A program made the translations under genes and the position numbers. Source: Candidatus Pacearchaeota archaeon (GTDB lineage: Archaea; Nanobdellota; Nanobdellia; Pacearchaeales; GW2011-AR1). From it: a stretch of DNA of 64,000 nt. The notes under the pieces are model-generated. The model had not been told where the DNA came from. It searched no databases and saw only the letters and a program-made list of their open reading frames with translations. The DNA lies in contig JAVYLW010000004.1 of NCBI GenBank assembly GCA_038740375.1, positions 28,067 to 92,066 on the forward strand, written 5' to 3'. Positions within the stretch are counted from its first letter, which is position 1. Every line of letters starts with the position of its first letter. This document shows positions 378-64,000 of this stretch, in pieces.

Positions 378-659
378 TATTTTGACCTCTTTAATACTTA
401 GTATATCTTTAGTAATAATAGAATGCTCATTGTTTTTTAATGTTTTTTTGTGTGTTTATAAATTTAATATATTTTTATTATTTCTTTAATTTATATTCTT
501 TGATTCTTTAATCTTTGATATTATATAAATATAAATAAAAAATATATCTTTAATAATATATTTTTTTATTTGTTAATGTTTATAAATTATTGCAATTTTA
601 AAAATTTGATGGATTTTTAAGACCACAAGGTTTTTAAATCTTTAAAATTTAAATCTAAA

Positions 660-34973: not shown

Positions 34974-36932
34974 TTATAAAATTTCTATATCTCCTATTCT
35001 CTTTTTTAGTTCTTTGATTTTATCCCTGATTTCTATTGCTCTTTCAAATTCAAGATTTTCTGCAGCATCCTCCATTTCTTTTGTTAATTCAATAATCAAA
35101 TTTGGAATTTCTGATTTTGGGATATTTTTTGTATCTTTTATTGTAACTGCTATTGCAAGTTCTTTTATTGGTTTTATTATTTTTTTAGGAATTATTTTAT
35201 TTTTTTTATTATATTCTATTTGAATATTTCTTCTTCTGTTTGTTTCTGTTATAGCGTTTTTAATTGATTCTGTGATTACGTCTGCATAAAGAACGACTTT
35301 AGAATTTATATTTCTAGCTGCTCTTCCAATTATTTGAATTAAGCTTCTTGTGTCTCTTAAAAAACCTTCTTTATCTGCATCTAAAATTCCTATAAAACCA
35401 ACTTCAGGAATGTCTAAACCTTCTCTTAGAAGATTAATTCCTATTAAACAATCAAATTTTCCTAATCTTAATTGTCTTATAAGTTCTGTTCTTTCCAGAG
35501 TTTTTATTTCAGAATGAAGATATCTGCATTTTATTCCTTTAGAAGCTAAAAAATCATTTAGTTCTTCTGCTAATTTTTTAGTTAATGTTGTTATTAAAAT
35601 TCTGTCACCCTTTTTTATTGTTTCATTAATCTCATTTAATAAATCTTCTATTTGATTCTTTGAAGGTTTAACTTCTACTAAAGGATCAATTAAACCTGTG
35701 GGTCTTATTATTTGTTCAACTAAATCTTCTGAATTTTTTATTTCATATTCTGCAGGCGTTGCTGATACATACATCACACAATTATTTTTTAGATATTCTT
35801 CAACTTCTTCAAATTTTAAAGGTCTATTATCATAAGCGCTTGTTAGCCTAAAACCATAATCAATAAGTGCTTTTTTTCTTGTTTTATCTCCATTATACAT
35901 AGCATTTAATTGAGGAATTGTTTGATGAGATTCATCAATAATTATCAAGAAATCCTTTGGAAAATAATCTAAAAGACAATAAGGTTTTTCTCCAGGCTTT
36001 CTTTTATCAAAATGTCTAGAGTAATTCTCTATTCCTTTACAATATCCTGTTTCTCTAATCATTTCTATATCATGCATTGTTCTTTGTTTTAATCTGTGAG
36101 CTTCTATTAATCCAAGATTTTTAATATCTTTTTCTAATTGAATTTCTATATCTTTTAGAACATCTTCCACATCGTTTTCAGGAATTATAAAATGCTTTGC
36201 AGGATATATATAAAAATAATCTATTTTTTCTAAAATTTTTCCAGTATTTTTTTCTATTTCATAAATTCTTTCTATAAGATTGCCAAACATTTCTATTCTT
36301 ATGATATTATTATAGTAACCTGGAATTAAGTCAATTGTTTCACCTTTTACTCTAAATCTTCCACTCATTAACTCTAAGTCATTTCTTTCAAATTGAATAT
36401 TAACTAGTTTCTTCAAAAGATCTTTTCTTTCAATTTTTTGATTAACTTTTATTTCAAAACCAAGTTCTTTGAAATTTTCTGGTTTTCCAAGTCCATAAAT
36501 ACATGATACAGAAGCAACAATTATTGTGTCATTTCTTGAAGTAATGGAAGCTGTTGCAGATAATCTCATTTGTTCTATTTTTGGATTTATAGAAGCGTCT
36601 TTTTCAATATACTGGTCTTTTTGAGGAATATAAGATTCTGGTTGATAATAATCATAATATGAAATAAAATATTCAACTTTATTTTTTGGAAAAAATTCTT
36701 TCATTTCTTCATAAATCTGTGCTGCAAGAGTTTTATTATGGCTTATAATGAGAGTTGGTTTATTTAAAGCTTGAATAACATGAGCCATTGTAAATGTCTT
36801 TCCTGAACCAGTAACTCCAAGCAATACTTGAGATTTTTTTCCAGATTTAAAATTTTCAATTAATTTCTTTATTGCAATTGGTTGACTTCCTGCAGGTTTA
36901 AATTTAGAGATGAGTTGAAATTTGTTTTGCAT
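34974..36932 (-). CDS. uvrB: Excinuclease ABC subunit B
   Basis: 652 aa. GVTGSGKTFTMA, DYYQPE, IIIDESHQT, helicase motifs and a C-terminal UVR domain (AAENLEFERAIEIRDKIKEL) are present. Confidence 0.95.
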   Translation of the reverse strand: MQNKFQLISKFKPAGSQPIAIKKLIENFKSGKKSQVLLGVTGSGKTFTMAHVIQALNKPTLIISHNKTLAAQIYEEMKEFFPKNKVEYFISYYDYYQPESYIPQKDQYIEKDASINPKIEQMRLSATASITSRNDTIIVASVSCIYGLGKPENFKELGFEIKVNQKIERKDLLKKLVNIQFERNDLELMSGRFRVKGETIDLIPGYYNNIIRIEMFGNLIERIYEIEKNTGKILEKIDYFYIYPAKHFIIPENDVEDVLKDIEIQLEKDIKNLGLIEAHRLKQRTMHDIEMIRETGYCKGIENYSRHFDKRKPGEKPYCLLDYFPKDFLIIIDESHQTIPQLNAMYNGDKTRKKALIDYGFRLTSAYDNRPLKFEEVEEYLKNNCVMYVSATPAEYEIKNSEDLVEQIIRPTGLIDPLVEVKPSKNQIEDLLNEINETIKKGDRILITTLTKKLAEELNDFLASKGIKCRYLHSEIKTLERTELIRQLRLGKFDCLIGINLLREGLDIPEVGFIGILDADKEGFLRDTRSLIQIIGRAARNINSKVVLYADVITESIKNAITETNRRRNIQIEYNKKNKIIPKKIIKPIKELAIAVTIKDTKNIPKSEIPNLIIELTKEMEDAAENLEFERAIEIRDKIKELKKRIGDIEIL

Positions 36933-37053
36933 GGAAAAAATATTATACTAAGATTTATAAAACTTAGTTATTTTCTGAAAAATTTTTATTAAAAATATCT
37001 AAATATATTTTTTTAAATTTAATTTATTAATCAAAATATTAAAAATCAATATT

Positions 37054-37659
37054 TTAAATAGAGTCTATTTCTTCTAATGTGGGGATTATATCTTGAAATT
37101 TTGATATTATTTTAAATGGATTTCCAATATACAGTCTTTCTTTTTCATGATATCCGAAGTCTACTGCAATCGTTCTTATATTAAGTTTATTTGCTTCTAA
37201 AATATCTCCTAACGTGTCTGTAATAAATACTATTTCATTTGATGATACATTATAATCTTGCATAACTATTTTAAATTTTTCAATTTTTGATTTGTGAATA
37301 TCAGATCCATAAACAAAGGAAAAAACATTTATTCTATTATTTTTTATATAAGTATTTATTCCTTTACTTTTTCCAGAAGAGATTATTCCAAGAATATATT
37401 CTTTTGATAATTTAATAAGCTCTTCTCTAATTTCAGGCTTTATTATTAATTTTTCCCTTAGATTATCCATACTTTCAGAAACATCAAAACCAGTATCTCT
37501 ATGTCTTAATTTTTCTTTTTGTTCATGAAGATTACCATCGTATAATTTTTTGTGTTCTTCTTTTGTTAAACCTAAAAATTGTTTTTGAAATAATTCAAAA
37601 TTTTGTTCATATGTGTCTTCTATTACACCATCATAATCAAAAACAATTACCTTTATCAT
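37054..37659 (-). CDS. HAD-superfamily hydrolase (phosphatase-like)
   Basis: 201 aa. HAD motif I is VIVFDYDGVIEDT, motif II is GIISSG and motif IV is FITDTLGD. It lies between uvrC and uvrB. Confidence 0.75.
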   Translation of the reverse strand: MIKVIVFDYDGVIEDTYEQNFELFQKQFLGLTKEEHKKLYDGNLHEQKEKLRHRDTGFDVSESMDNLREKLIIKPEIREELIKLSKEYILGIISSGKSKGINTYIKNNRINVFSFVYGSDIHKSKIEKFKIVMQDYNVSSNEIVFITDTLGDILEANKLNIRTIAVDFGYHEKERLYIGNPFKIISKFQDIIPTLEEIDSI

Positions 37660-37910
37660 ATTAAATATCTTTACTTAATTTTACTAAACTTATATTTTAA
37701 TTTGATTATTTAAATCTGTTAAATGAGGTTTAAGATATCCTATTCTTTATCTCTGTAAATAGTCTATAAATAGTCTACAAATAGAGACTTATTTAAATAA
37801 TTTTTCATTAACATTTAAAATAAATCAAAAAAATGGTATAATTTTTTAATGGTTTAGATAACTTTTTATATGTACTTTTTTCAAATAATATTTATTCTAA
37901 ATCTAAAAAA

Positions 37911-39482
37911 TTAATTTTTTTCAAAGAGGCTTTTTTTCCTTAAAAGTTTGTTATAATATATTGCAAACCTATGCGCTTCATCTCTTATTTTTTGTATTAA
38001 TTGTAATGCGATATTCTTTTTTTCTAATTTTAAAGGTTCATTTATATTAGGAAGATAAATCTCTTCAAATTCTTTTGAAATTGATATAACAGGTATATTT
38101 AAGTTCAATTTTTTTAAAGCTTTTAATGCACTATTTAATTGACCTCTGCCTCCGTCTATTATTATTAAGTTTGGAAGGTTCAGTTTTTCTTTTTTGATTC
38201 TATAATATCTTCTAAAAACTATTTCTTCTATTGCTGCAAAATCGTCAATTTGATTAACTGATTTTATCTTGAATCTTCTATAATTAGATTTATCAGGAAT
38301 ACCATTTCTAAACTGAACCATTGAGCCTGTTTGTAAGGTTCCTGATAAATGAGACACATCAAAACATTCAATAACTCGCGGAGTCTCTTCTAAGTTAAGT
38401 TCTTTTTTTAAAGCTTCTAATTTTTCAGTATCACTAAAAAAAACTATTTCTATATTTTTCAAAACTAAATCTAACAAAATTTTTTTATCTCCAATATCTG
38501 GGACAGTTATTTTAACTTTTTTCCCTCTTTTATAACTTAGATATGTTTTCATAGACTCATCTATATGATGAGGAAGAATAATCTCTTTTGGAATAGGATT
38601 TTCTGAGTAATATTGAAGAAGAAATTCTTCAAAAAAATCTTCTGTTTTTTCAAAAACAAATTCTTGCTTATTATTTAATGTTCCTTTATAAATATTAAAT
38701 AACAAAAGATAAACTAAATTATCTTTTATTACATAATTAATTATGTCTTCATTATATTTTTTTTGTCGCTCAACTCTTTGTCTTTCTTTTAAATATTCTA
38801 AAGACTGAATAACGTTTCTTATTTCTAACGCTTTTTCAAAATTTTGAGACTTAGACTCTTTTTTCATTTTTTCATTTAAAAATTTAATTATTCTTTTTAT
38901 TTTTCCTTTTAAAACTGACTCTACGAGTTTTATTTTTTTACTATATTTTTCTTTTGAGATATTGCCTATGCAGGGAGCTTCACAAAGATTTATCGAATAT
39001 CTCAAACATGGTTTTTTTGGAAATTTTTTGCATGTTCTTATTTTAAAAATTCTTGTTAAAGTTTCTAAGATATAATCTCTTTTTTCAGCAGATGTAAAAG
39101 GACCGAAATATTTTCCTTCTTCTTTTTTTTGTCTTGCTATTAATAATCTTGGAAAATCTTCATTTGTTAACTCTAAATAAGCATATCTTTTTGAATCTTT
39201 TAAATTGATATTATATTTTGGAGAATGTTTTTTAATAAGATTATTTTCTAAAATTAAAGATTCTTTTTCTGATTCTGTTACTATAAAATCTATAGTATCT
39301 ATATTTTTTATTAATGCCTTTGTTTTTGAATCATATTCTTCAAGAGGTTTTTGAAAATAACTTAAAACTCTTTTTTTTAAATCTTTAGCTTTACCAATAT
39401 AAAGAATCTTTCCTTCTTTATCTTTGAAAATATAACATCCTGGAAGATTTGGAAGATTTGAATATTTTATTTCATATTCCAT
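37911..39482 (-). CDS. uvrC: Excinuclease ABC subunit C
   Basis: 523 aa. The GIY-YIG N-terminus is PGCYIFKDKEGKILYIGKAKDLKKR..YF. A UVR domain, the endonuclease V-like region IECFDVSHLSG and LIIIDGGRGQ are present. Confidence 0.9.
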   Translation of the reverse strand: MEYEIKYSNLPNLPGCYIFKDKEGKILYIGKAKDLKKRVLSYFQKPLEEYDSKTKALIKNIDTIDFIVTESEKESLILENNLIKKHSPKYNINLKDSKRYAYLELTNEDFPRLLIARQKKEEGKYFGPFTSAEKRDYILETLTRIFKIRTCKKFPKKPCLRYSINLCEAPCIGNISKEKYSKKIKLVESVLKGKIKRIIKFLNEKMKKESKSQNFEKALEIRNVIQSLEYLKERQRVERQKKYNEDIINYVIKDNLVYLLLFNIYKGTLNNKQEFVFEKTEDFFEEFLLQYYSENPIPKEIILPHHIDESMKTYLSYKRGKKVKITVPDIGDKKILLDLVLKNIEIVFFSDTEKLEALKKELNLEETPRVIECFDVSHLSGTLQTGSMVQFRNGIPDKSNYRRFKIKSVNQIDDFAAIEEIVFRRYYRIKKEKLNLPNLIIIDGGRGQLNSALKALKKLNLNIPVISISKEFEEIYLPNINEPLKLEKKNIALQLIQKIRDEAHRFAIYYNKLLRKKSLFEKN

Positions 39483-39527
39483 AATTTTCGTAATAAAAAT
39501 CTATAATTTTAAAATATGTACATCTTA

Positions 39528-39810
39528 TTAAATCTTTAGCAAAAAATTTAAGCCCTTTAGAGGGTGAATACGAATTGCGTCATGATTAACGCCTCTTCTC
39601 TAAAATATTTATTTTTTATATAATGTTCATATTATGCCTGCGTTGAGAAAGAGATATATAAGAGGTCATTTTTGGAGTGAGGGTACTTTTTGTGTAAGTT
39701 GTATAAACAATTATGAAAGAGTAATGAAATATGTAGAAAAAAGAGGCATATTATAATTTATTTTAAGCTACTAAGGAAGGCTGTTCACTTTAGTTGACAG
39801 AGGATTTCAC
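39528..39810 (+). mobile_element. MITE-like repeat, copy 4 of 4: long variant retaining an IS200/IS605 tnpA relic
   Basis: The left end (TTAAATCTTTAGCAAAAAATTTAAGCCCTTTAGAGGGTGAATACGAATTGCGTCATGATTAA) and right end (ATGAAATATGTAGAA..TAAGCTACTAAGGAAGGCTGTTCACTTTAGTTGACAGAGGATTTCAC) match the short copies. About 125 extra internal nt are missing from the short copies. It fills the uvrC-uvrA spacer and ends 3 nt before the uvrA stop codon. Confidence 0.6.
39634..39756 (+). pseudogene. tnpA: Relic of IS200/IS605-family Y1 transposase (TnpA), C-terminal 40 codons only
   Basis: My own translation: MPALRKRYIRGHFWSEGTFCVSCINNYERVMKYVEKRGIL. This parallels the TnpA C-terminus as I recall it (P.LKKRYWG.HLWS.GYF..TVG....E.I.KYIENQ). 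The short copies keep only the ...MK(Y/F)I(E/D)(N/S)QE... codons. Confidence 0.55.
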
Positions 39811-39813
39811 AAA

Positions 39814-42630
39814 TTATTTATTATTAATTTTTTCCTTTTCCCTGAATAAATGATTCTTTAAATATTGTCCTGTGTATGATTTAGGGTTTTCAATTATTTC
39901 TTCTGGAGTTCCTTCTGCAATAACATATCCTCCTTCATCACCTCCTTCAGGACCTAAATCTATTATATAATCAGAACTTTTTATTACATCTAGATTATGC
40001 TCTATAACTAATATTGTGTTTCCTTTATCCACAAGCTCGTTTAAAACTTTTAATAATTTTTTGATATCATGAAAATGTAATCCTGTTGTTGGCTCATCTA
40101 ATATATATAAAGTCTTTCCTGTTCCTCTTTTTGCAAGCTCTTTAGTGAGTTTTATTCTTTGGGATTCTCCTCCAGATAATGTTGTAGATGACTGCCCTAA
40201 TTTTATATAATCTAAACCTACTTTTTTTAACATCTCAAGTTTTCTTTTAATTGATGAAATATTTTCAAAAAGCTCAATTGCTTGTTCAACAGACATTTCT
40301 AACACATCTGATATAGATTTTCCTTTATACTTAATCTCTAATGTTTCTTTATTATATCTTTTTCCTTTGCATTCTTCGCATTCTATATAAATATCTGGAA
40401 GAAAATTCATTTCTATTTTAATTAAGCCGTCTCCTTGACATCTTTCACATCTTCCTCCATAAACATTGAAAGAAAATCTTCCTGGTGGATATCCTCTTAT
40501 TTTTGCTTCTTTTGTTTGTGAAAAAAGATATCTTATTTCATCAAAAGCTTTAATATATGTTGCAGGATTACTTCTAGGAGTTTTTCCAATCGGAGATTGA
40601 TCGATTATGATAACTTTATCTATTTCGTTATTTAATAATATTTTATCATGTTTTCCAGGAGTTTCTTTAGAATCAAAAAATTGTTTCATAAGTGATTTAT
40701 ATAATATCTCATTAACAAGTGTTGATTTTCCAGAACCTGAAACACCTGTTATACATACAAAGATTCCAGTAGGTATTTTTACGTTTATATTTTTTAAGTT
40801 ATTTTCTTTTGCACCTATTATTTCAATATTTCCTTTTGGGATTCTTCTTGTTTTTGGAATTTCAATCTTATATTTTCCAGAAAGATATTTTCCTGTTAAA
40901 GAACTCTCATTATTTTCTATTTCATTTGGAGATCCTGTTGCTACAATTTTTCCTCCATGTATTCCTGCTCCAGGACCTATATCAATTACATAATCTGCGT
41001 TTCTTATTGTATCTTCATCATGTTCCACTACTATCAAAGTATTTCCTAAATTTCTTAATGTATGCAATGTTTCTATTAATTTGTGATTATCTCTTTGATG
41101 AAGACCTATAGAAGGTTCATCTAAAATATATAAAACACCAGTTAATCCAGAACCTATTTGAGTTGCTAGTCTTATTCTTTGAGATTCTCCTCCTGACAAA
41201 GTTCCAGAGTTCCTGCTTAAAGTCAAATATGATAATCCTACTTTATCTAAGAAAGTTAATCTCGACTTTATTTCTTTTAATATTTGTTTTGCAATTTCAA
41301 ATTCTCTTTCTTCAAGTTTTAAATTATCAAAAAATTCAATCAAACTTTTTATAGACAATTCTGTTAAATCAATAATTGATTTATCTTTTATTAAAACAGA
41401 CAATACCTTATCTTTTAATCTTTTTCCATTACATTTTTGGCAAATAGATTCTGACATATATTTTTCAAGTTCTTTTTTTCTATATTCAGATTCTGTTTGT
41501 TTATATAATCTTTCTGATTGAGGTATAATTCCTTCCCAACCTTTGTCAAAATTAAAAAAAGAACCTGTATTTTTAATAGGCTCTTCACTTCCATACATTA
41601 ATATATTAAATTGTTTTTTGGTAAAATCTTTTATTGGAGTATAAAGTTTGAAACCATATTTTTTTCCAACAATTTTTAATTGTTCCGATCTCCAAGAATA
41701 ATCCATTTTTCCATAGACTTTTATAGCACCTTCCATTATGCTTTTTGATTTATCTGGAATAATTAAATCCGGATCAAACTCGATTTTAACACCAAGACCA
41801 TGACATTCTTCACATGCTCCAAAAGGGCTATTAAAGGAAAACATTCTTGGCTGAAGCTCTTCAAAAGAAATTCCACAAATTGGACATGACATTGATGCAG
41901 AATATATCTTTTCAGTATTATTTTCATCTAAAACAATCACTAGTTTATCTTCTGATTTTTTTATAGAGTTTTCTACTGCTTCTGTTAATCGTGATATATC
42001 CTCTGTATTTAATCTGTCTATGACAATTTCTATATCATGTTTTTTATATCTATCTAATTTAATTATTTCATCAGTTCTATAAAAAATCTTATTGATTCTT
42101 ACTCTTGTAAAACCTTCTTTATTTAAATCTGAAATCTTTTTTTCATAGGTTCCTTTTTTTGCTCTTATAATTGGAGACAATATTGTAATCTCTTTTGATT
42201 TAAAATCCTCCTGAATTCTTTTGCTGATTTTTTCAGGTGATTGACCTTGTATTTTTATTTTGTGTTCAGGACAATAAGGTATTCCTATACGCGCATAAAG
42301 TAATCTTAAATAATCATAAATTTCAGTAACGGTTCCAACTGTTGATCTCGGATTTTTTGAAGCTCCTTTTTGTTCAATTGATATAGCAGGAGACAATCCT
42401 TCAATAGAATCAACATCAGGTTTGTTTAATTGCCCTAAAAATTGTCTTGCATATGCAGATAATGATTCTACATATCTTCTTTGACCTTCTGCATATAAAG
42501 TATCAAATGCAAGTGTTGATTTTCCAGAACCTGAAACACCTGTTAAAACTATAAATTTATTTCTTGGTATTACTAAATCTATATTTTTTAAGTTATGTTC
42601 TCTTGCACCTTTTATTATTATTTTATCCAT
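39814..42630 (-). CDS. uvrA: Excinuclease ABC subunit A
   Basis: 938 aa with duplicated ABC ATPase modules: GVSGSGKSTLAFDTLYAEGQRRY and ITGVSGSGKSTLVNE. Signature motifs LSGGESQRIRLA and LSGGESQRIKL and zinc-finger Cys clusters are present. Confidence 0.95.
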   Translation of the reverse strand: MDKIIIKGAREHNLKNIDLVIPRNKFIVLTGVSGSGKSTLAFDTLYAEGQRRYVESLSAYARQFLGQLNKPDVDSIEGLSPAISIEQKGASKNPRSTVGTVTEIYDYLRLLYARIGIPYCPEHKIKIQGQSPEKISKRIQEDFKSKEITILSPIIRAKKGTYEKKISDLNKEGFTRVRINKIFYRTDEIIKLDRYKKHDIEIVIDRLNTEDISRLTEAVENSIKKSEDKLVIVLDENNTEKIYSASMSCPICGISFEELQPRMFSFNSPFGACEECHGLGVKIEFDPDLIIPDKSKSIMEGAIKVYGKMDYSWRSEQLKIVGKKYGFKLYTPIKDFTKKQFNILMYGSEEPIKNTGSFFNFDKGWEGIIPQSERLYKQTESEYRKKELEKYMSESICQKCNGKRLKDKVLSVLIKDKSIIDLTELSIKSLIEFFDNLKLEEREFEIAKQILKEIKSRLTFLDKVGLSYLTLSRNSGTLSGGESQRIRLATQIGSGLTGVLYILDEPSIGLHQRDNHKLIETLHTLRNLGNTLIVVEHDEDTIRNADYVIDIGPGAGIHGGKIVATGSPNEIENNESSLTGKYLSGKYKIEIPKTRRIPKGNIEIIGAKENNLKNINVKIPTGIFVCITGVSGSGKSTLVNEILYKSLMKQFFDSKETPGKHDKILLNNEIDKVIIIDQSPIGKTPRSNPATYIKAFDEIRYLFSQTKEAKIRGYPPGRFSFNVYGGRCERCQGDGLIKIEMNFLPDIYIECEECKGKRYNKETLEIKYKGKSISDVLEMSVEQAIELFENISSIKRKLEMLKKVGLDYIKLGQSSTTLSGGESQRIKLTKELAKRGTGKTLYILDEPTTGLHFHDIKKLLKVLNELVDKGNTILVIEHNLDVIKSSDYIIDLGPEGGDEGGYVIAEGTPEEIIENPKSYTGQYLKNHLFREKEKINNK

Positions 42631-42806
42631 AGACTTATTTCTTTAAAAACCTAAAAATTAATTTTTTCTATATTTAACTTTTAATAATCGTTTTATTATT
42701 TTTATTTAAATAATAATTTTAAAAAATAAAAGTATTACAGATATAAATAATCTTTTTTATAGTAATAATTCTGATAAGTCTTAATTTATAAAATTAATTA
42801 TTTTAA

Positions 42807-42877
42807 GTGGGCGTGGAGAGAATCGAACTCTCAATTTTCGGTCTGGAGCCGAAAGGTTTACCATTAGCCTACACACC
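42807..42877 (-). tRNA. tRNA-Trp (anticodon CCA)
   Basis: 71 nt on the minus strand: GGGTGTGTAGGCTAATGGTAAACCTTTCGGCTCCAGACCGAAAATTGAGAGTTCGATTCTCTCCACGCCCA. The anticodon arm is TTCGG-CTCCAGA-CCGAA and the T arm is GAGAG-TTCGATT-CTCTC. Confidence 0.85.
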
Positions 42878-42922
42878 CTTAAATATTTCAGAAATTTAAG
42901 GTTTTTAAAACCTTTTTATTCC

Positions 42923-43594
42923 TTACATTTTTTTCATTTGTTCAATTTCTATTTCTGAAATTGAACATCCGTGTAATTTTAAAGCCCAGAGAGCTGCATC
43001 TAATGTTCTTGTGTCTTTAATCTCAAAAAAACCTTTTTTGTAAGATATATATGCAAGTTCAGTTGAACGGATTATTTTAAATCTTTTAAAAAATTCATAG
43101 TTTTCTTTTCTTGCCATAATTTTTGTATGAAACTTATTTTCCAACAATTTCTTTAAATTTTCAGGAGATTCGCATAACATTCTCGTTGTTCGTTCATCAA
43201 CTGCTATAATATTTGGTTCTTTTATTATAACAGATAAAGCTAAAGCTGCACATTCACCTTTTTCTAGCAAAGGTATATTATTTTTGTTTGTATAAAAAGT
43301 TGAATTTGCTAAGTTCATTATTTCTTCTCTTATTTTTCTAAGCTCATTAATTTGTTCATCTGTTAAATTAGCGTGTTTTATTATTCCTTTGTTAAAAATA
43401 TCTTGTAATTGCAAAGCTTCATATTCGTATTTTTTTAAGGTAATTGGATAATCAATTATTTCTTGCTTAACTTCTTTTGTTATAAGAAACTCTACTGAAA
43501 AGGACTCTTTTATTTTTATTAAAATTCCTAGCATATTATTCATTGCAAAGTTTATCAAAGGTCCTGAATCAAAAATAATATATTTTCCTGCCAT
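42923..43594 (-). CDS. PIN-like domain protein (predicted nuclease), larger than typical VapC
   Basis: 223 aa. Candidate acidic catalytic positions have PIN-like spacing: IIFDSGPLINF, ITKEVKQEI, EKGECAALAL and IAVDERTTRM. It starts 10 nt downstream of the HTH protein gene. Confidence 0.4.
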   Translation of the reverse strand: MAGKYIIFDSGPLINFAMNNMLGILIKIKESFSVEFLITKEVKQEIIDYPITLKKYEYEALQLQDIFNKGIIKHANLTDEQINELRKIREEIMNLANSTFYTNKNNIPLLEKGECAALALSVIIKEPNIIAVDERTTRMLCESPENLKKLLENKFHTKIMARKENYEFFKRFKIIRSTELAYISYKKGFFEIKDTRTLDAALWALKLHGCSISEIEIEQMKKM

Positions 43595-43604
43595 TTTTTA
43601 ACTA

Positions 43605-44171
43605 TTATCTTTTACTCAAAAAATCCTCCAATAATTTGATTCTGTCTTTTATACTCATTGTTATTGAAATATTTGATTCTGGAACTTTCTTTTGTCCTGC
43701 ATATTCAGCTAATTCCCATATGCTAATACCTAAAATTTTTGCTGTTTTTGACATTGAAATTCCATGTTCATAAATTTTTGATGCTTTGTTAATTTTAGCT
43801 TTTCTAAAAACATCTGAAATAAAATTTTTTAATTCTCCTGAAAGTTTTTCAATTAATCTATTAACATTGGATATTTCTTGAGTATATAATCTTAAATTAT
43901 CTTTTTCCAAAGCTCTGATTATTCTGTCAATTGCATTTATGTAATCTTTATAAAATTCATTCCAATTAGAATATTTTTGATAATAATTTCTTTCAATAAG
44001 TTTACTTAATGAATATATTATTACTGCTGTAAAAATTATATTAGGATCTTGTTCTATTGAAGAAGAATGAACAACCTGATTACTTAAATTTTTAATTTTA
44101 ACATAATCTTTTTTTCTTAAAGCATTTTTAACTTGTTTTAATATTTCTAAGATATGCTCTTTTTCTTCCAT
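43605..44171 (-). CDS. Helical protein with C-terminal helix-turn-helix (putative regulator or antitoxin-like partner of the PIN-like ORF)
   Basis: 188 aa. The HTH-like segment is GISMSKTAKILGISIWELAEYAG. It forms an operon with 42923-43594. Confidence 0.4.
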   Translation of the reverse strand: MEEKEHILEILKQVKNALRKKDYVKIKNLSNQVVHSSSIEQDPNIIFTAVIIYSLSKLIERNYYQKYSNWNEFYKDYINAIDRIIRALEKDNLRLYTQEISNVNRLIEKLSGELKNFISDVFRKAKINKASKIYEHGISMSKTAKILGISIWELAEYAGQKKVPESNISITMSIKDRIKLLEDFLSKR

Positions 44172-44353: not shown

Positions 44354-44743
44354 ATGATAAATGTGATACTTGATACAAACTTTCTGATATATTGTGCTAA
44401 AAATAAACTAGACTATAAAGAAGAAATTTCTAGTCTGTTAAACGAAGATTTTAAATTAGTTACACCTAAACAAGTTGTTGATGAATTAAAGAAATTAATG
44501 AATGATAGATATGGCAAGGTTTCATTTAAGGATAAAAGTGCATGCAAGCTTGCATTACAGCTATTAGAGTTTTATAATGTCAAAATAATAAATGTTTCAG
44601 GAAAAAACGTAGATAATGCAATTTTAAAATTAGCTTTTGAAAATAATAAAAATATTGTTGCAACATTGGATAAAGAAATGAGAAATAAACTTCCACGAGT
44701 TATTTTAATAAATAAATATAAAAAATTGATACTTGCTAAATAA
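44354..44743 (+). CDS. Fcf1/Utp24-like PIN-domain endoribonuclease homologue
   Basis: 129 aa. VILDTNFLIYCAKNKLD, VTPKQVVDELKKL and IVATLDKEMRNKL fit the archaeal Fcf1-type PIN pattern. Confidence 0.6.
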   Translation: MINVILDTNFLIYCAKNKLDYKEEISSLLNEDFKLVTPKQVVDELKKLMNDRYGKVSFKDKSACKLALQLLEFYNVKIINVSGKNVDNAILKLAFENNKNIVATLDKEMRNKLPRVILINKYKKLILAK

Positions 44744-45680
44744 TATCTCTTATTTGCATTTGAAATCTTATTTTTCTTTTAGCTTCATTTGATATCAATC
44801 TAATCATCTCCCTTGAATATCCTAATCTTCTTCCAATTTGAGCATTATTAAGAGGCTCATTTCCATCTAAACCAAATTTCATTATTAAAACAGTTTTTTC
44901 TGTTTCATTTAAACTCTTATCGTTATTTAATATTTCAATTACTATATCTAATTCTTCTTTATTTAAGATATCCTCAAGAGGAGTTTTTAAATTTGAAGGA
45001 TAAATTTCATCTAATTCATATGGTTTAGAATTTTCTAATTTTTTCTCTAGTATATCTTTTATACCTCTTACTTGAATTGATTTTAATGTTTTTTTATTCT
45101 TAAAATCATAAGTTATTTGTTTACCTATTTCTTCATCAGTTGGAGCTCTCTTTAATTTTTCTTTTAGTTCTTTTTCTGTTCTTTCTACATCTTTTATTTT
45201 GTCATTTAAATATTTTGGAACAAAAATAAATCTTGTTCTTGCATTATATACTAAAGCATCTATTTCTTTTTTAATGTAAATTTTAGAATGTGTTGATAAT
45301 TTTCCTTTTGTATAATCCCAATTTGCTGTTGCTTGAAATAGACCCAATCTACCTGCTTGAAATAAGTCATCGTATTCTAATCCTCTACTGAGATAATCCT
45401 TTATAATTTTTTTAATTAATCCCTCATTTTTTTCAACTAAAATTTCTCGAGCATTATTGTAATTTTTTTCTAAATATTTTTTCTCTTCTGCTTTTGCATT
45501 ATTATATTTTTTTATTATTTTACCTAACCTCAAATTTAGTTCTTCTAAGTTTTCTGTTTTATATTTCTTTTTTTTTCTTCTTAAAATAAATGCATAAGGA
45601 AGTTTTACTATTAATAAATCACCTATTCCTAAATCATAATTTTCATTTTCAGGAACTTGTATATGAATTTGAAATGTCAT
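44736..45680 (-). CDS. Bacterial sigma-70-family-like protein (regions 2, 3 and 4) with unique N-terminal extension, in an archaeal context
   Basis: 314 aa. Region 2.1-2.2 is NEGLIKKIIKDYLSRGLEYDDLFQAGRLGLFQA, region 2.3-2.4 is GKLSTHSKIYIKKEIDALVYNARTRFIFVPKYL, region 3 is LKEKLKRAPTDEEIGKQI and region 4 is LNETEKTVLIMKFGLDGNEPLNNAQIGRRLGYSREMIRLISNEAKRKIR. Each is collinear with canonical sigma-70 motifs. Confidence 0.75.
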   Translation of the reverse strand: MTFQIHIQVPENENYDLGIGDLLIVKLPYAFILRRKKKKYKTENLEELNLRLGKIIKKYNNAKAEEKKYLEKNYNNAREILVEKNEGLIKKIIKDYLSRGLEYDDLFQAGRLGLFQATANWDYTKGKLSTHSKIYIKKEIDALVYNARTRFIFVPKYLNDKIKDVERTEKELKEKLKRAPTDEEIGKQITYDFKNKKTLKSIQVRGIKDILEKKLENSKPYELDEIYPSNLKTPLEDILNKEELDIVIEILNNDKSLNETEKTVLIMKFGLDGNEPLNNAQIGRRLGYSREMIRLISNEAKRKIRFQMQIRDII

Positions 45681-45813
45681 AAAAATCTTAAAAAAATTCT
45701 ATTTAAAAACTTTTATCTTTTTTATCATTATAAAATAGTTACAAAATATACTATTAGTTTAATTATCTTTTTTTATATAACTTGTTTAGAGTTGTTTTTA
45801 TTTATTAGGACAA

Positions 45814-45825
45814 GCTTTATAAAGC
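45814..45825. promoter_or_regulatory. 12-nt perfectly palindromic TATA-like element GCTTTATAAAGC in the sigma-like/rpoE divergent spacer
   Basis: Read directly from the sequence. It is centred about 55 nt upstream of the rpoE ATG (45874). A TATA core with symmetric flanks could serve either direction. Its function is inferred only. Confidence 0.3.
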
Positions 45826-45873
45826 CAATTTTTTTAGTTATTAATAAATTTACTAATATAATTATATATTAAA

Positions 45874-46476
45874 ATGTTCTATATAGTAGAAGTTCAGGAT
45901 TATGTAAGAGTAGAGCCAAGATTGTTTGGTCTTTCTACAGCTGACGCAGTTGCAAAACAATTGCAAGAAATATACGAGAATTATCACGATAAAGAAATTG
46001 GAGAAGTTATTGGAATCATATCCATACTTGAAGTTGGTAATGGAATAATTATTCCTGGTGATGGTTCTGCTTATTATAATTCTAGATTTAAACTTTTAGC
46101 ATTTAAACCTGAACTACAAGAGCTTGTATATTGTATAGTTGATGATATAACTAATTTTGGAGCTTTTATGAATATGGGTGTTATGAAAGGAATGATTCAT
46201 ATTTCACAAACAATGGACGATTATGTTAGTTTTTCTTCAAATAATACTTTAGTAGGAAAAGATACTAAAAGAATATTAAAGAAAAAAGATTTATGTTTAG
46301 CTAGAATTGTTGCTATTTCTTATAAAGGAGATGTTCCAAAAATTGGACTTACTATGAGGCAGCCAGGTCTTGGAAAATTAGAATGGTTAAAAGAAGAAAA
46401 ACAAAAAGCTCAAGCTGCAATTAAAAAAATTGCAAAAACATCTAAATCTGAAGATAAAAAGGGAGCAAAGAAATAA
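45874..46476 (+). CDS. rpoE: DNA-directed RNA polymerase subunit E (Rpo7)
   Basis: 200 aa. The N-terminus MFYIVEVQDYVRVEPRLFG and the S1 domain (ELVYCIVDDITNFGAFMNMGVMKGMIHISQ) are present, followed by a Lys-rich tail. Confidence 0.9.
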   Translation: MFYIVEVQDYVRVEPRLFGLSTADAVAKQLQEIYENYHDKEIGEVIGIISILEVGNGIIIPGDGSAYYNSRFKLLAFKPELQELVYCIVDDITNFGAFMNMGVMKGMIHISQTMDDYVSFSSNNTLVGKDTKRILKKKDLCLARIVAISYKGDVPKIGLTMRQPGLGKLEWLKEEKQKAQAAIKKIAKTSKSEDKKGAKK

Positions 46477-46664
46477 TGGCACAAAAAGAAAAAGCTTGTA
46501 AAGGATGTAGATTAATTTATGAAGGAGAAGTTTGTCCTTTTTGCGGAAGAAAAGATTTTTCAGATAATTTTAAGGGTAAAGTTGAAATAATTAATCCAGA
46601 AAAATCAGAGATAGCAAAGCAACTAAAAGTAAACAAAAAGGGTATTTACGCAATTAAATTATAA
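46476..46664 (+). CDS. spt4: Transcription elongation factor Spt4 (RpoE'')
   Basis: 62 aa. The zinc ribbon is CKGCRLIYEGEVCPFCG. Its start overlaps the rpoE stop by 1 nt, the classical rpoE-spt4 arrangement. Confidence 0.8.
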   Translation: MAQKEKACKGCRLIYEGEVCPFCGRKDFSDNFKGKVEIINPEKSEIAKQLKVNKKGIYAIKL

Positions 46665-47080: not shown

Positions 47081-47476
47081 ATGATAGATAAAAACTTAGA
47101 AAGATTAATAGATATAATAAATGGAAAAATTTTATTTAAAGAGTCATTTGTAATATCTGATATTTCTAAATTTGATTTTAATAATTTTTTAGATAAAATT
47201 ATAAAAAAAATTATTGAATTTAGAGAGTATAGAAACGGTTATAATATGTGTAATTATGAAATTGTTTTTTTTAGAGGGGATTTTTTAGATTATGATATAC
47301 TTGGAAGTATTATTAGTGGAAATTTTACATTAACAGGAAATCCTAATCGCATTAAAGGTAAATTTATGAAACGCTGTTTTGAGATATTTGATGAAATCAA
47401 AGAAGATTATATAGAAAATCCCTGCCTTGTAAATGTTAGCATAGGTATTATAGGATATACTGACAAATTTAAATAA
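47081..47476 (+). CDS. Hypothetical protein
   Basis: 131-aa ORF. I recognise no motif. Confidence 0.4.
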   Translation: MIDKNLERLIDIINGKILFKESFVISDISKFDFNNFLDKIIKKIIEFREYRNGYNMCNYEIVFFRGDFLDYDILGSIISGNFTLTGNPNRIKGKFMKRCFEIFDEIKEDYIENPCLVNVSIGIIGYTDKFK

Positions 47477-47518: not shown

Positions 47519-47812
47519 ATGGTAATAAAAAAAAAGAGAAAAAATAATAAAATAAAAAATAAAAAAAAATTTAATAAAAAATTTTCAAAAAAAGCTTTTA
47601 TAAGAACAAAAAAAGAAAGTAAAATAGCAAAGATAGAAAAAGAATTTGAAGAAGAACTTAAAAAAGATTTTTTGGAAACAAAAAAATGGATGATTCAAAG
47701 AAAAAAGTTTTTTTTAAAACTAGGCATAATTATTATTTTAATACTTATCTTAATTTTAGTTCTTGTTTTAATTGAAAGATTTACTAGTTTTTCTATATTT
47801 AAATTTTTTTAA
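47519..47812 (+). CDS. Lys-rich protein with C-terminal TM helix (hypothetical)
   Basis: 97 aa. It has a poly-Lys/Asn N-terminus encoded by A-runs and a C-terminal helix LGIIIILILILILVLVLI. The low-complexity coding lowers confidence. Confidence 0.3.
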   Translation: MVIKKKRKNNKIKNKKKFNKKFSKKAFIRTKKESKIAKIEKEFEEELKKDFLETKKWMIQRKKFFLKLGIIIILILILILVLVLIERFTSFSIFKFF

Positions 47813-60133: not shown

Positions 60134-60769
60134 ATGGGTTCAAAATACTTTAGATATTATTTTTTAAAAATATGCCTTATATTGATAATTGTGTTTTTAT
60201 TTGAAATCTGGATTCCAGGATTTGCTGATATGTTTATCTTGACTAAAAGTGCTCAAAATGGAGAATATTGGAGATATTTAACTGCAATTTTCTTACATTT
60301 AAATTTATTACATTTGCTTTTTAATTTACTAGGTTTATTCTTTTTTGGCTGGGCTCTTGAAAAATTAATAGGAAGCAATAGATTCTTAGTTATTTTTTTA
60401 AGTTCTGGAATAATTGCAAATTTAATTTCAGTCAATTTTTACGAAGGAAGTTTAGGTGCTAGTGGAGCTATATATGGAGTTATAGGTTGTTTAACTATAC
60501 TTAGACCTTTAATGTTTACATTTGCTTTTGGACTTATTTTGCCTGTTTTTATAGCTGTAACAATATGGATTATAGGAGACATTATAGGAACAATCTATGG
60601 TTCAAATGGTATTGGGAATATTGCTCATCTATCGGGAATTGGAGTTGGAATATTTTCAGGTATACTTTTTAGAATATTAATGAAAAACGAACTTAAAAGA
60701 ATTAAGAAAAAAAAATTTTATTTTCCTGAAACTTTAATTAGAAAATGGGAAGAGAAATATATAAAATAA
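60134..60769 (+). CDS. Rhomboid-family intramembrane serine protease
   Basis: 211 aa. HLNLLHLLFNLLGLFFFG, the catalytic GASGAIYGVIG (GxSG) and the His in IAHLSGIGVG are present. The protein is polytopic. Confidence 0.8.
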   Translation: MGSKYFRYYFLKICLILIIVFLFEIWIPGFADMFILTKSAQNGEYWRYLTAIFLHLNLLHLLFNLLGLFFFGWALEKLIGSNRFLVIFLSSGIIANLISVNFYEGSLGASGAIYGVIGCLTILRPLMFTFAFGLILPVFIAVTIWIIGDIIGTIYGSNGIGNIAHLSGIGVGIFSGILFRILMKNELKRIKKKKFYFPETLIRKWEEKYIK

Positions 60770-61068
60770 TTTTTAAAATCAGTCTTGTGTTCTTTAAAAA
60801 CATTTTAGTTAAATAGTCAAAAATTATGCTTTTTTTTAGATATTTTGAATAATAACTTTAAAAGAGAAAATTAGAAAAAATATAAAGTTATCTATTATAA
60901 TAGATAAAAATTTATTTTTATCTTAAATTAAATTTTTTTGCATTTTTATTGAGCTGAACAAAAATACTATTATACTTTTATTAAATTTATTAAAAAACTT
61001 TTAATTTTTTCTTGAATATCTAATCTTAATTTTAAAAATAATTTCTTGATATATTTTATATTCTATCG

Positions 61069-61500
61069 TTATCTTATGATTTCTTCAGCTCTGTCAAAAA
61101 TTATAGCTTTTTGTTTATCATCTAATTCTTCATCTAGTTTTGGATAAAAATTCTTATCTTCAAAATTTGCATGACTCCTTAGAAGTTTTTTTAATTCAGA
61201 GATATCAGGTATTTTATTAGCATCTAATTCATCTTCTGTTTTATTTAATAACCAATATATATCTTTATGTTCTTTTAATAATTTTAGAATGTCAATATTA
61301 TCCTCTTCTGAAACTGATTCATAAACACTAAAAATAACTTTTTCTTCTACAAAGAAATGTTTATTTAAATTCCACTTAAATTTGTTAAATAAATTTTTTG
61401 AGTTATCTAAATTTTTTGTTAATTCTCTTTCAAACATACTTAATAATTTCATGATTTGAGCATGATCTTTTAACATTATTTTACAAACTGTTTTTCCCAT
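61069..61500 (-). CDS. Hemerythrin HHE cation-binding domain protein
   Basis: 143 aa. Spaced His/Glu pairs are present: DHAQIMKLL, HFFVEEKVIF, EHKDIYWLL and HANFEDKNFYPKLD. Confidence 0.6.
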   Translation of the reverse strand: MGKTVCKIMLKDHAQIMKLLSMFERELTKNLDNSKNLFNKFKWNLNKHFFVEEKVIFSVYESVSEEDNIDILKLLKEHKDIYWLLNKTEDELDANKIPDISELKKLLRSHANFEDKNFYPKLDEELDDKQKAIIFDRAEEIIR

Positions 61501-61659
61501 ATTTTTAACTTCTCTTTTTTAGTTTAATAATTTTATGTATTAATTTTACTTATTCATTATAAATGAAATTTATTTATTATTAGTAGTGAGAAAGATATTT
61601 AAAGGGTAATTTTTTATTTAAAAGTTATTATAACCTATACAAATTTATTTTGACTTATT

Positions 61660-62820
61660 ATGGTTAAAAAATATTTTATAACATCAGAAAGTGTAACAGA
61701 AGGTCATCCTGATAAAATCTGTGATAATATATCTGATGCTATTTTAGATAACTTAATAGTTCAAGATCCTTATTCTAGAGTTGCAGTTGAGACGTTAGTT
61801 ACAACAGGAAGCGTTCATATTGCAGGAGAAATAACTTCAAGAGGATTTGCTGATTTTCAAACAATAGCAAGAAGAGTTTTAAAAGAAATAGGATATACAG
61901 ATCCAAAATTTGGAATTGATGCTGAAGATGCTGGTGTTTGGGTTTCTATTCATGGTCAAAGTCCAGACATTTCTATGGGAGTAACTGAAACTGAAAATAA
62001 AGATCAGGGTGCTGGTGATCAAGGTATGATGTATGGATTTGCTTGTAATGAAACTCCTGAATTAATGCCATTACCAATAGTTCTTGCTCATAAATTAACC
62101 ATGAGAATGGCAGAAGTTAGAAAAAAAGGAATAATTAAACATTTAGGTCCTGATGGAAAATCTCAGGTTTCTGTTGAGTATCATGATGATAAACCCGTTA
62201 GAATAGATGCTATAGTTATTGCACAGCAACATAAGGAAGAAATATCAGAAGAAGAACTTAGAAAAGAGATTTTAGAAAAAGTGATAAAACCTGTATGCTC
62301 TAATATGATGGATGATAAAACAAAGATTCATATAAATGCAACAGGCAGATTTGTAATAGGAGGTCCTGAGGGAGACACTGGTGTTACTGGAAGAAAAATA
62401 ATTGTTGATAGTTATGGAGGTGTTGGAAGACATGGAGGAGGAGCTTTTTCTGGAAAAGATCCTTCAAAAGTTGATAGAAGTGGAGCTTATATGGCTAGAT
62501 ATGTTGCCAAAAATATTGTAGCTGCAGGTTTAGCTGATAAATGTGAAATTCAGATTTCTTATGCCATTGGAGTTGCAAAACCTACCTCTATAAATGTTGA
62601 TTGTTTTGGAACAAACAAAATACCTGAGGATAAAATTATGGAGCTTGTTGAAAAAAATTTTGATCTTAGACCAAAGGCAATAATTGAGCATTTAAATTTA
62701 AGAAGACCTATATACAGAAAAACAGCTTCATATGGACATTTTGGAAGAAATGATTATGACTTTACTTGGGAAAGAACAGATAAAGCTGAAATTTTAAGAG
62801 AACAAGCTAACTTAAAATGA
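61660..62820 (+). CDS. metK: S-adenosylmethionine synthetase, bacterial/eukaryal MetK type
   Basis: 386 aa. [76 protein letters not shown] and ASYGHFGR are all canonical MetK blocks. Confidence 0.95.
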
Positions 62821-63040
62821 TAAAATAAGTAATAAAGAATTTCTTATAAAAATTAAAAGATTAATTGAAAGGTATTATTATCTAGTTTTATATTAAAAAA
62901 ATAAAATTTAATCAAGTTTAAAAGATTTAAATTTTTAAAATAACAAATGAAAATCTTTAAAAACAATTATCCACAATTTTAATTAAGTTTTATAAGATAT
63001 TATCTTGATATCAATAGTTTCCTTTTTTATTTTTATATTT

Positions 63041-64000
63041 TTATTGATATTCTTCAATTTGTATTGGGGTAGATTTATCTGTTTTAAAAGTGAAAATCCT
63101 TATTATTTCTTTTTCAAAACTCTTTATTTTTGATTTTATTTTCTTGTTATGATTCTTCAATTCTTCTATCAAATAATTTGTAAATTCTTGTTCGTCTACT
63201 TTTCTTACTTCTTTTATTTTTTTACCCATAATTAAAAATGCTATTAATCTTCCTAATGCACTAACTATAAAAACAATTATCAATGAAGGTATTGTTATTA
63301 AATTAAAGGATGCGATTACTCCTCCTATTGTTGCTCCAATAAAAGTTCCAAGTGTATTTATTGAATTATAGTATGCAACACATATTGCTAATCTTTGTCT
63401 AGTTACTGAATCAAAAATAAAATTAGCTGCTGATAAATTAAATCCTGCCCAAATAAATCCTGAAAAACATTCAGTTATTATTAAAATTGGAAATGAGAGT
63501 TGTCCTAAGTTATATTTAATCAAGAAAAATGTAATTACGTATCCTATTGGAACTGTAAATAAGAATAATCCAGTTATTTTCATAACCTTCACAGTTCCGA
63601 CTTTATCAGTATATCTTCCCCAAAAAGGCATAAATATTGAAGTAACTACGATTGAGCATATTGATACTATCGTAAATTCTATATATGAAAAGCCTAAATT
63701 TTTTAACATATATACTGAAAAAAATGGTGCTGCGATTGCTGTTGTTAAAGAAATTAAAGAAATGAATATTACAAATCTTCCAAAATTATTGTTCTTCATT
63801 TTTTTAACAAATTCTGCAAAACTGAAGTAATACTCTTCTTCGAATTTAAACTCAGGCTCGTATTGATTTATAAATAAAAATCCTGAAAAAAGTCTTCCTA
63901 AAAAAGCTATAAAGAAGATTATTGCAAAACCCAATATTACGTTATCATCTTTAAAATGATTTAAAATAATTCCAGTTAATAGCATAGATAGAACAGTTAT
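63041..64000 (-). CDS. MFS-type transporter, C-terminal part (ORF open to the window end)
   Basis: It has six or more hydrophobic helices followed by a charged cytoplasmic tail. My reverse translation of 63986-64000 shows no stop upstream of the track's Met, so the gene likely continues beyond the window. Confidence 0.5.
   Translation of the reverse strand: MTVLSMLLTGIILNHFKDDNVILGFAIIFFIAFLGRLFSGFLFINQYEPEFKFEEEYYFSFAEFVKKMKNNNFGRFVIFISLISLTTAIAAPFFSVYMLKNLGFSYIEFTIVSICSIVVTSIFMPFWGRYTDKVGTVKVMKITGLFLFTVPIGYVITFFLIKYNLGQLSFPILIITECFSGFIWAGFNLSAANFIFDSVTRQRLAICVAYYNSINTLGTFIGATIGGVIASFNLITIPSLIIVFIVSALGRLIAFLIMGKKIKEVRKVDEQEFTNYLIEELKNHNKKIKSKIKSFEKEIIRIFTFKTDKSTPIQIEEYQ

Follow-up and report, generated by a model that had tools for sequence, protein, structure and literature searches.

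Sigma factors are a hallmark of bacterial transcription, as TBP, TFB and TFE are of archaeal transcription, and a sigma factor gene lying beside archaeal transcription genes raises the question of what its product could do there. Such a gene is found in a stretch of 64,000 nucleotides (the window) from a contig of a Candidatus Pacearchaeota archaeon, a small DPANN archaeon of symbiotic type, in which an open reading frame (ORF) of 314 codons with an ATG start (44736..45680, minus strand) encodes a sigma-70-family protein, here called the window sigma. An initial interpretation of the DNA made without database searches (the sequence-only reading) had taken an archaeal sigma to be unprecedented. 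This premise did not hold, as sigma-70 genes were reported in DPANN archaea and found “particularly prevalent in Woesearchaeota” (Castelle et al., 2021, fam00359; PMC8204110), in one paragraph that excludes mis-binning, notes the absence of anti-sigma factors and gives the mechanism as unknown. NCBI also lists the identical protein, MEM0465604.1 on a 117-kb contig, as [quoted passage not shown]. Sigma-70 genes on archaeal scaffolds are thus a known phenomenon, to which we liken the present case by description only. The literature that we searched contained nothing on a fixed position beside rpoE, on evolutionary rate, presence and absence, pseudogenes or an N-terminal element, nor any further characterisation. 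What is newly described here is one family with its rpoE-side insertion site, its fast rate, its losses and disrupted copies, and the loss of W433. We assign a probability of about 0.5 to the reading that the window sigma is a once-acquired, non-essential, lineage-specific transcription regulator, for which we infer DNA binding and a regulatory role.

The ORF encodes a genuine sigma-70-family protein beyond reasonable doubt, as the sequence-only reading had proposed from motif strings, all of which are present in the translation. The Pfam models Sigma70_r2 (PF04542; 3.8e-9, 36.6 bits against a cut-off of 24, residues 81-140) and Sigma70_r4 (PF04545; 6.3e-8, 32.4 bits against 24.1, residues 256-305) both matched above their cut-offs. 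Sigma70_r3 (PF04539) stayed under its cut-off of 25.3 (3.3e-4, 21.1 bits) and covered residues 161-188 only; the region 3 helices are present in the AlphaFold2 (AF2) model, and the full-length alignment with SigA passes through region 3. Pfam region 1.2 (Sigma70_r1_2, PF00140) gave no match in the ORF. Among the NCBIfam models, the RpoD/SigA subfamily aligned over residues 39-305 (3.3e-34) and RpoS over residues 36-311, and all curated cut-offs were missed widely, with TIGR02997 scoring best at 118.5 bits against 384.5, and RpoS reaching 95.6 against 378.7. A sequence search of the PDB aligned Thermus SigA with residues 54-307 (8e-23). The AF2 model, computed from a 101-sequence sigma alignment, has a predicted local distance difference test (pLDDT) score of 83.8 and shows the expected helices over residues 45-313. 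Foldseek matched the model best to SigA and RpoS chains from initiation complexes (E about 1e-11), and the top 50 are all sigma-A or sigma-S chains or one modelled SigA (E from 1e-11 to 1e-8).

The closest known proteins are accordingly the group 1/2 sigmas (RpoD/SigA, RpoS), which provide the best profile and structure matches and share the order of 1.2-like helix, sigma-2, sigma-3, linker and sigma-4. The window sigma differs from them in its archaeal host, the lack of region 1.1, a family-specific N-terminal beta-element, the substitutions Y430H, W433I, W434Y, Q437K, R441A and Q589L (E. coli sigma-70 numbering, mapped from the alignment and used below for all key positions), and scores far under the NCBIfam cut-offs (118 versus 384 bits).

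Residues 1-44 (45549..45680; all domain coordinates refer to the minus strand) form the family-specific N-terminal element, made up of beta-strands and a basic linker, RRKKKKYK. AF2 with a family-only alignment predicted four beta-strands within residues 3-33 with modest confidence (pLDDT 60-71). Its motif, Y.L..GD.LIG....PY.F, is conserved in the relatives P0024, P0025, P0027, P0033 and L023. An acidic region 1.1 is absent from the ORF, the element has no sequence relative in the PDB, and a profile of the N-terminal part only (A4) gave zero matches in a protein search. The unique N-terminal extension of about 80 residues that had been read from the sequence thus exists, but comprises only about 44 residues, namely the beta-domain of residues 1-33 and the basic linker; the next stretch, residues 45-84, is helical and aligns with sigma regions 1.2 and 2.1, and the NCBIfam alignments begin at residues 36-45. 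The equivalents of regions 1.2 and 2.1, residues 45-99 (45384..45548), are modeled as helices 45-61, 64-84 and 86-99 and carry the family signatures N-x-R-L-G-x-I-I-x-x-Y and Y-x-x-A-R, with N.RLG..I..Y lying in helix 45-61; N49, G53, I56, Y74 and N85 (window numbering) are invariant in the family.

Regions 2.2-2.4, residues 100-150 (45231..45383), keep the 2.2 scaffold, represented in the window copy by D105, L106, Q108, G110, G113 and L114, and have altered melting and -12 residues. Regions 3.0-3.1, residues 151-216 (45033..45230), are the least conserved domain, with 17-34% identity between syntenic copies. The region 3.2-like linker, residues 217-240 (44961..45032), has a low pLDDT and ends in a conserved TPLE motif. 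The region 4 helix-turn-helix (HTH), residues 241-314 (44739..44960), is the best conserved domain.

Sixteen of 29 key positions are kept in the window copy. N383, L386, D403, L404, Q406, G408, G411, L412, S428, T429, R584, E585, R588, K597 and R599 are retained, and the changes comprise E407A, N409R, F419W, Y430H, W433I, W434Y, Q437K, T440D, R441A, R451F, R586M and Q589L. The sequence-only reading was right that region 2.2 is well kept (D403, L404, Q406, G408, G411 and L412 equivalents) and that the melting aromatics and the -35 helix have diverged (Y430H, W433I, W434Y, Q589L). The -10 recognition and melting positions Y430, W433, W434, Q437, T440 and R441 are replaced by H, I, Y, K, D and A, respectively, and in the -35 recognition helix R584, E585 and R588 are kept next to R586M and Q589L. 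Across an alignment of 101 sequences (A3), 10 of them from the archaeal family, 24 of the 30 positions that are at least 90% conserved are kept in the window copy; the six changed ones (V89I, A93I, Y131H, A132S, W135Y and Q295L, in window numbering) cluster in regions 2.3 and 4.2.

Comparison of 16 family copies revealed that W433 is lost in all of them, whereas W434 is kept in four (P0137, P0038, L023 and L030). Most members retain the equivalents of D403 and Q406, and a single copy departs from an otherwise invariant N383. Region 2.2 and -35 helix positions differ lineage by lineage, so that near-canonical and strongly remodelled versions coexist among close relatives. The sub-lineage of the window (window, L009, P0025 and L011) shares the motifs NWDYTKG.LSTH and FGLDGNEPLNN.QIG..L..SRE.IRL. 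Other copies show variations of their own: L023 (8370-9506, minus strand) and L055 carry extra sequence that separates the 1.2-like helix from region 2.1 and is reminiscent of a non-conserved region, L030 (2686-3783, minus strand) and L054 (984-2024, plus strand) bear long proline-rich N-terminal extensions, and L019 and L051 have a degenerate region 4.2 with K..QNINQ instead of TRERIRQ.

Where did this protein come from? A phmmer search of 1.84 billion representatives returned 35,096 sigma relatives, of which only three are close to the window sigma (P0024, 46% identity; P0025, 43%; P0026, 34%); beneath them lies a continuum at about 31-34% identity. A motif and BLAST screen of the top 150 matches added P0027, P0029, P0033, P0137, P0038 and P0052 to the family. 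Ten archaeal-type sequences were monophyletic in a neighbor-joining (NJ) tree (bootstrap 83%) against 91 other sigmas, which were the top-scoring non-family sequences, mostly unnamed, and of which the few checked by name or context were bacterial (Limisphaera, Bacilli). The motifs Y.L..GD.LIG....PY.F, N.RLG..I..Y in place of region 1.2, Y..AR, LK..QV.G...LEKE and TPLE were found in the family only. The archaeal copies are thus a single family, distinguished by an N-terminal beta-domain of its own. None of the non-family sigmas can be singled out as the bacterial donor, the best being about 33-38% identical. Phage sigmas (PHROG 351) are likewise sigma-70-family proteins outside the bacterial chromosome, and their profile matched the window sigma (7e-29). 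However, their identity to it is 29-32%, the same as that of bacterial sigmas, no close relative was found in the viral collections (IMG/VR), and the locus contains no viral genes. Protein-pattern scans with the close-clade alignment detected no relatives in metagenome and viral contigs. A scan of genome contigs retrieved bacterial sigmas only, through chance patterns, and word-index protein searches gave either a mass of bacterial sigmas or no match.

The sigma gene occupies a fixed place in an archaeal neighborhood. Its 3′ end overlaps that of a convergent Fcf1-like PIN_9 gene (44354..44743, plus strand) by exactly 8 nt, and a divergent spacer of exactly 193 bp separates it from rpoE, which encodes Rpo7 (45874-46476, plus strand; Pfam Rpb7-N/S1) and is followed by spt4 (46476-46664, plus strand; Pfam Spt4), so that the order is PIN_9, sigma and Rpo7-Spt4-S24e-S27ae. 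Both distances are those given in the sequence-only reading, and its view that the neighbors are archaeal was borne out by Pfam for PIN_9, Rpo7 (Rpb7-N/S1), Spt4, S24e and S27a, and elsewhere in the window for RFC and an archaeal-type PheRS. No bacterial core RNA polymerase (RNAP) genes were detected among the window ORFs scanned; nor were TFE, TFB or TBP among the scanned ORFs of at least 100 residues, a set that leaves aside four such ORFs at 60134-63985. Around the sigma gene we found no repeats, no mobile-element signature and, with PADLOC, no other defence components.

In the window and in L009, L011, L012, L013, L014 and L016, the gene adjoins PIN_9 and points away from Rpo7, and the same arrangement recurs in 12 JGI metagenome loci. 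Every family member with flanking DNA adjoins PIN_9 and, wherever upstream DNA is present, is divergent from Rpo7-Spt4-S24e(-S27ae); the P0025 contig contains the PIN_9 side and is cut at the upstream gene, and in L009 another gene separates rpoE from sigma. The linkage to rpoE-spt4, which the sequence-only reading had proposed to survey, therefore holds for all related loci that bear sigma. An assembly or binning artefact joining a bacterial fragment to archaeal DNA has nothing in its favor beyond the bacterial affinity of the protein family. With the same arrangement in seven independently assembled and 12 metagenome loci, from NCBI, Logan and JGI assemblies, a chimera is excluded, as had been argued from the sequence; the 8-nt PIN overlap shared by the window and L009, the uniform GC content (21-28% over the whole window) and the monophyly of a family with no close bacterial relative, its best non-family matches being about 31-34% identical, also stand against it, and we consider an artefact practically negligible. 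The overlap itself is identical in the window (44736-44743) and L009 (5070-5077) despite sigmas that are only 47% identical, and the sigma and PIN_9 transcripts must be antisense-overlapping at their ends.

The interval between PIN_9 and Rpo7 is a variable spot (window 44744-45873; L009 3310-4011; L021, L026, L028, L039, L041, L045, L052, L057 and L050). It can be empty (<70 nt), or contain sigma, a conserved ORF of about 200 residues (called proteasome-like in L009) or both, as in L009; elsewhere it holds unrelated ORFs of 131-198 residues without a Pfam match, or a DDE transposase (L050).

To sample this interval independently of the sigma gene, we used a DNA probe composed of the conserved rpoE promoter and the Rpo7 N-terminus, which brought up 41 JGI loci from this clade, their Rpo7 sharing 73-88% identity with the Rpo7 of the window. 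Twelve of them contain sigma by the family hidden Markov model, always divergent and just upstream of Rpo7; in 23 the interval was sequenced without a sigma at the site, and six were uninformative, so that 23 of 35 informative loci are sigma-less. The spacer limit of the probe under-samples window-type loci, and 12 of 35 is a biased frequency. PIN_9 lies upstream of Rpo7 in 21 of the 23 sigma-less loci, often less than 70 nt away; the remaining gaps contain the family of about 200 residues, ORFs of about 131 and of 186-198 residues, or the transposase of L050, and the gaps of the loci that lack sigma yielded no remnant of the gene. Two copies are disrupted. L032 (about 590-1470, plus strand) has an in-frame TAA in region 2.1, between “KTQLY” and “LNKGL”, and in L034 (960-1863, minus strand) the frame is shifted between regions 3 and 4; barring assembly errors, the two inactivations are independent. 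In an NJ tree of Rpo7, the loci with sigma gather in a single region of the tree, within which sigma-less lineages are also nested; all sigma-bearing loci are monophyletic in only 1% of the bootstraps, but support for the deep nodes is weak. This pattern, together with the monophyly of the sigma family, makes one gain followed by repeated loss the most parsimonious history.

Sigma is the fastest-evolving gene of its block. Over five syntenic loci, pairwise identities are 79-86% for Rpo7, 56-81% for a DUF3368-like protein, 58-71% for a 188-residue protein (p186) and 58-67% for PIN_9, compared with 26-47% for sigma. The NG86 estimate of nonsynonymous divergence (dN) between the window and L009 is 0.42 for sigma and 0.09-0.23 for six neighbors, i.e., two to five times faster; the ratio to synonymous divergence (dN/dS) is about 0.5 for sigma and 0.07-0.21 for the neighbors, rough values with dS near saturation. 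Sigma-4 is the best kept and sigma-3 the worst kept segment. The mean identity within the archaeal family, from closely related hosts, is 30% versus 40% among the 91 non-family sigmas. In contrast to primary sigmas, which are essential and evolve slowly, the archaeal family gene is dispensable and very fast. Nevertheless, the 314-codon ORF is intact in DNA of 23% GC, although stop codons would make up about 9% of random codons by our own estimate, which suggests that the window sigma is still under selection.

We also examined the promoters of the locus. A 12-mer, TTTATAAAG[CG]TT, occurs once per locus in seven archaeal loci (L009 3270-3281, L010 102-113, L011 793-804, L012 6456-6467, L013 79-90, L014 2858-2869 and L016 52-63), 21-55 nt upstream of the Rpo7 ATG, and in the window at 45812..45823 (minus strand), where the TTTATAAAGCTT element, a palindromic TATA box with flank, lies 50 nt upstream of the rpoE ATG. 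We rejected the 12-mer as a sigma target, because it stays with rpoE where another gene separates rpoE from sigma (L009) and matches the archaeal TATA box; it is presumably the archaeal B recognition element (BRE)/TATA promoter of rpoE-spt4. In the compact loci L016 and L014, the sigma and Rpo7 starts lie at equal distances (about 24 nt) from the palindromic TATA, which may fire in both directions. For the window sigma gene itself, TTTTTAAATA at 45700..45709 (minus strand; -29 to -20 from the ATG) is a candidate archaeal TATA box in an AT-rich background; TATA-like boxes 23-38 nt upstream of sigma start codons are weak evidence in such AT-rich DNA. Canonical sigma-70 promoters were not enriched (149 found, 149.6 ± 13.4 expected), and TTGACA-N17-TATAAT showed no enrichment near the sigma gene or across 20 kb.

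How might such a protein act in an archaeal cell? According to our preferred reading, a bacterial sigma-70 of group 1/2 type would have been captured once by an ancestor within a narrow Pacearchaeota-type DPANN clade, inserted between the Fcf1-like PIN gene and rpoE, and vertically inherited since then as an accessory gene, an ordinary archaeal promoter of the TATA type probably driving its transcription. In its new host, it would have lost, or never held, a general role in initiation, given its very fast evolution, the loss of the tryptophan wedge for -10 melting and its repeated deletion or inactivation. The window sub-lineage has an intact ORF and conserves a remodelled sigma-2 pocket (NWDYTKG.LSTH) and, most strongly, the sigma-4 HTH. 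The protein would therefore read DNA chiefly via sigma-4, possibly aided by sigma-2, and tune a small regulon rather than direct the polymerase to promoters genome-wide. Archaeal sigma-4-like or LuxR-type HTH regulators such as Tfx and HTH_10 have the same proposed mode, an HTH reading double-stranded DNA (PMC5413776), although they carry the HTH only and the window protein the architecture of a full-length sigma. The archaeal initiation factors TFE and TFB have functions analogous to those of sigma-2 (clamp coiled-coil binding, open-complex stabilisation) and of sigma-3.2 and sigma-4 (PMC7289017), but have no sequence or fold relationship with sigma.

Several observations weigh against a DNA-binding accessory regulator. 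Most members preserve the whole sigma-2/sigma-3/linker/sigma-4 layout and the greater part of the region 2.2 scaffold; a plain HTH regulator needs no full sigma layout, which hints at docking on a polymerase-sized partner. P0137, P0038, L023 and L030 keep Y430, W434 and the full R584/E585/R588/Q589 set, as if the canonical contacts were still selected. A free bacterial sigma binds promoter DNA poorly without the core enzyme, and no target DNA motif for the sigma protein was found. Absence at the locus is no strict proof of absence from the genome, the dN/dS values of about 0.5 are rough owing to near-saturated dS, and with pseudogenes in an apparent sister lineage the window copy may also be on its way out.

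Some of these points recur in a scenario in which the sigma acts on the archaeal polymerase, with sigma-2 docking on the clamp coiled-coil of Rpo1, the site of TFE and Spt5, as an alternative initiation or open-complex factor. The archaeal polymerase is the only multisubunit polymerase expected in the cell, and the family has preserved the full sigma architecture with its linker length and TPLE segment, together with the D403 and Q406 equivalents in most members and a near-invariant N383; several members (P0137, L023, L030) are near-canonical, and the gene adjoins those of the clamp- and stalk-associated Spt4 and Rpo7. The latter adjacency is, however, accounted for by insertion into a variable interval in which unrelated genes are found as well. 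A factor of this kind also fits poorly with a gene that is the fastest-evolving in its block, absent from the site in 23 of 35 informative loci and a pseudogene in two, with E407, N409, G408 and G411 of region 2.2 varying freely in the family and W433 lost everywhere; the archaeal polymerase is moreover not known to have the bacterial flap-tip helix bound by sigma-4. The suggestion of the sequence-only reading that the protein might be a new RNAP-clamp-binding regulator is weakened by the same absences, the two disruptions, the two- to fivefold dN and the variable region 2.2. We consider action on the archaeal polymerase unlikely. Quite improbable is a more specific form of it, in which sigma-2 sits on the clamp coiled-coil of Rpo1, the N-terminal beta-element perhaps contacts the Rpo4/7 stalk, and the protein serves this lineage as an alternative factor for initiation or for the open complex. 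Were such docking real, it would make this protein the first sigma to work with a polymerase of the archaeal/eukaryotic type. At the other extreme, the gene could be a slowly decaying remnant of horizontal transfer that serves no function in this genome today, a minor but serious possibility. Decay would account for the very high substitution rate with NG86 dN/dS of about 0.5-0.7, the repeated loss with two independent disruptions in related lineages, and the erosion of positions with a conservation of 85% or more across the 91 non-family sigmas (A3), but not easily for a 314-codon ORF kept open in 23% GC DNA, for homologues in L009, P0025 and L011 that are likewise intact and of the same length at 33-47% identity, or for the shared clade motifs NWDYT, STH, FGLDGNEPLNN.QIG and SRE.IRL. 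Reduced DPANN genomes also tend to purge dead genes.

Two further functions are speculative. The protein might be an effector aimed at the bacterial polymerase of a host or neighbor, as phage sigmas redirect host RNAP, which could explain canonical contacts in some members of a family whose cells are expected to contain no bacterial core enzyme, the fast, arms-race-like evolution, and the conserved N-terminal element as a delivery tag. This idea, purely speculative, is very improbable in view of the loss of W433 in all copies and the lack of a signal peptide, secretion genes, a known bacterial host and close relatives in viral collections. A role in anti-virus defence, like that of the sigma-containing MzaA, is suggested by matches to MzaA models (NCBIfam 1.5e-30; PADLOC 8.7e-15) and by fast evolution and patchy presence, both typical of defence genes. 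These matches are limited to the generic sigma part of MzaA (profile positions 425-659 of 683 and 445-704 of 726) and reach 106.7 bits against an NCBIfam cut-off of 800; the N-terminal part of roughly 440 residues of MzaA, a protein of about 700 residues in full, is missing, and no partner Mza genes or other defence components lie nearby, so that this role appears slightly less probable again.

A sigma gene long resident in archaea is a natural experiment on what a sigma does without its cognate polymerase. There is now a defined system, with one family, one rpoE-side insertion site, near-canonical and remodelled versions, and natural knock-outs, in which one can test whether the protein binds to DNA by itself, associates with the archaeal polymerase, or has no activity. 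Its optional and fast-evolving status tempers the expectation of a rewired archaeal initiation.

Other features of the window are of interest in their own right. Downstream of PIN_9 lies a pair of genes (42923..44171, minus strand) for the 188-residue protein, with a C-terminal HTH and weak UPF0175 and HTH_7 matches, and a 223-residue DUF3368-like, i.e., PIN-like, partner. The pair is toxin-antitoxin-like, yet unusually conserved (56-81% identity) and syntenic clade-wide; its occurrence in sigma-bearing and sigma-less relatives alike indicates that it is not sigma-specific. Next to it, a bacterial-type excision-repair block (34974-42878) comprises UvrB (34974-36932), a HAD hydrolase (37054-37659), UvrC (37911-39482) and UvrA (39814-42630), with a tRNA-Trp at 42807-42878 in the same stretch. 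In the window, this block is placed between the DUF3368-like gene and the Methyltransf_15/BacA genes; as these flanking genes are adjacent in the syntenic L014, the block looks like an insertion in the lineage of the window. Two ORFs are inserted between S24e and S27ae, one of 131 residues (47081-47476, plus strand) and one of 97 residues (47519-47812, plus strand) with a lysine-rich N-terminus and a hydrophobic tail; neither matched a Pfam or PADLOC family. Finally, an ORF of 1699 residues (16107-21206, plus strand) combines an M14 zinc-carboxypeptidase domain with CARDB repeats and probably encodes a surface or secreted protein of a symbiont.

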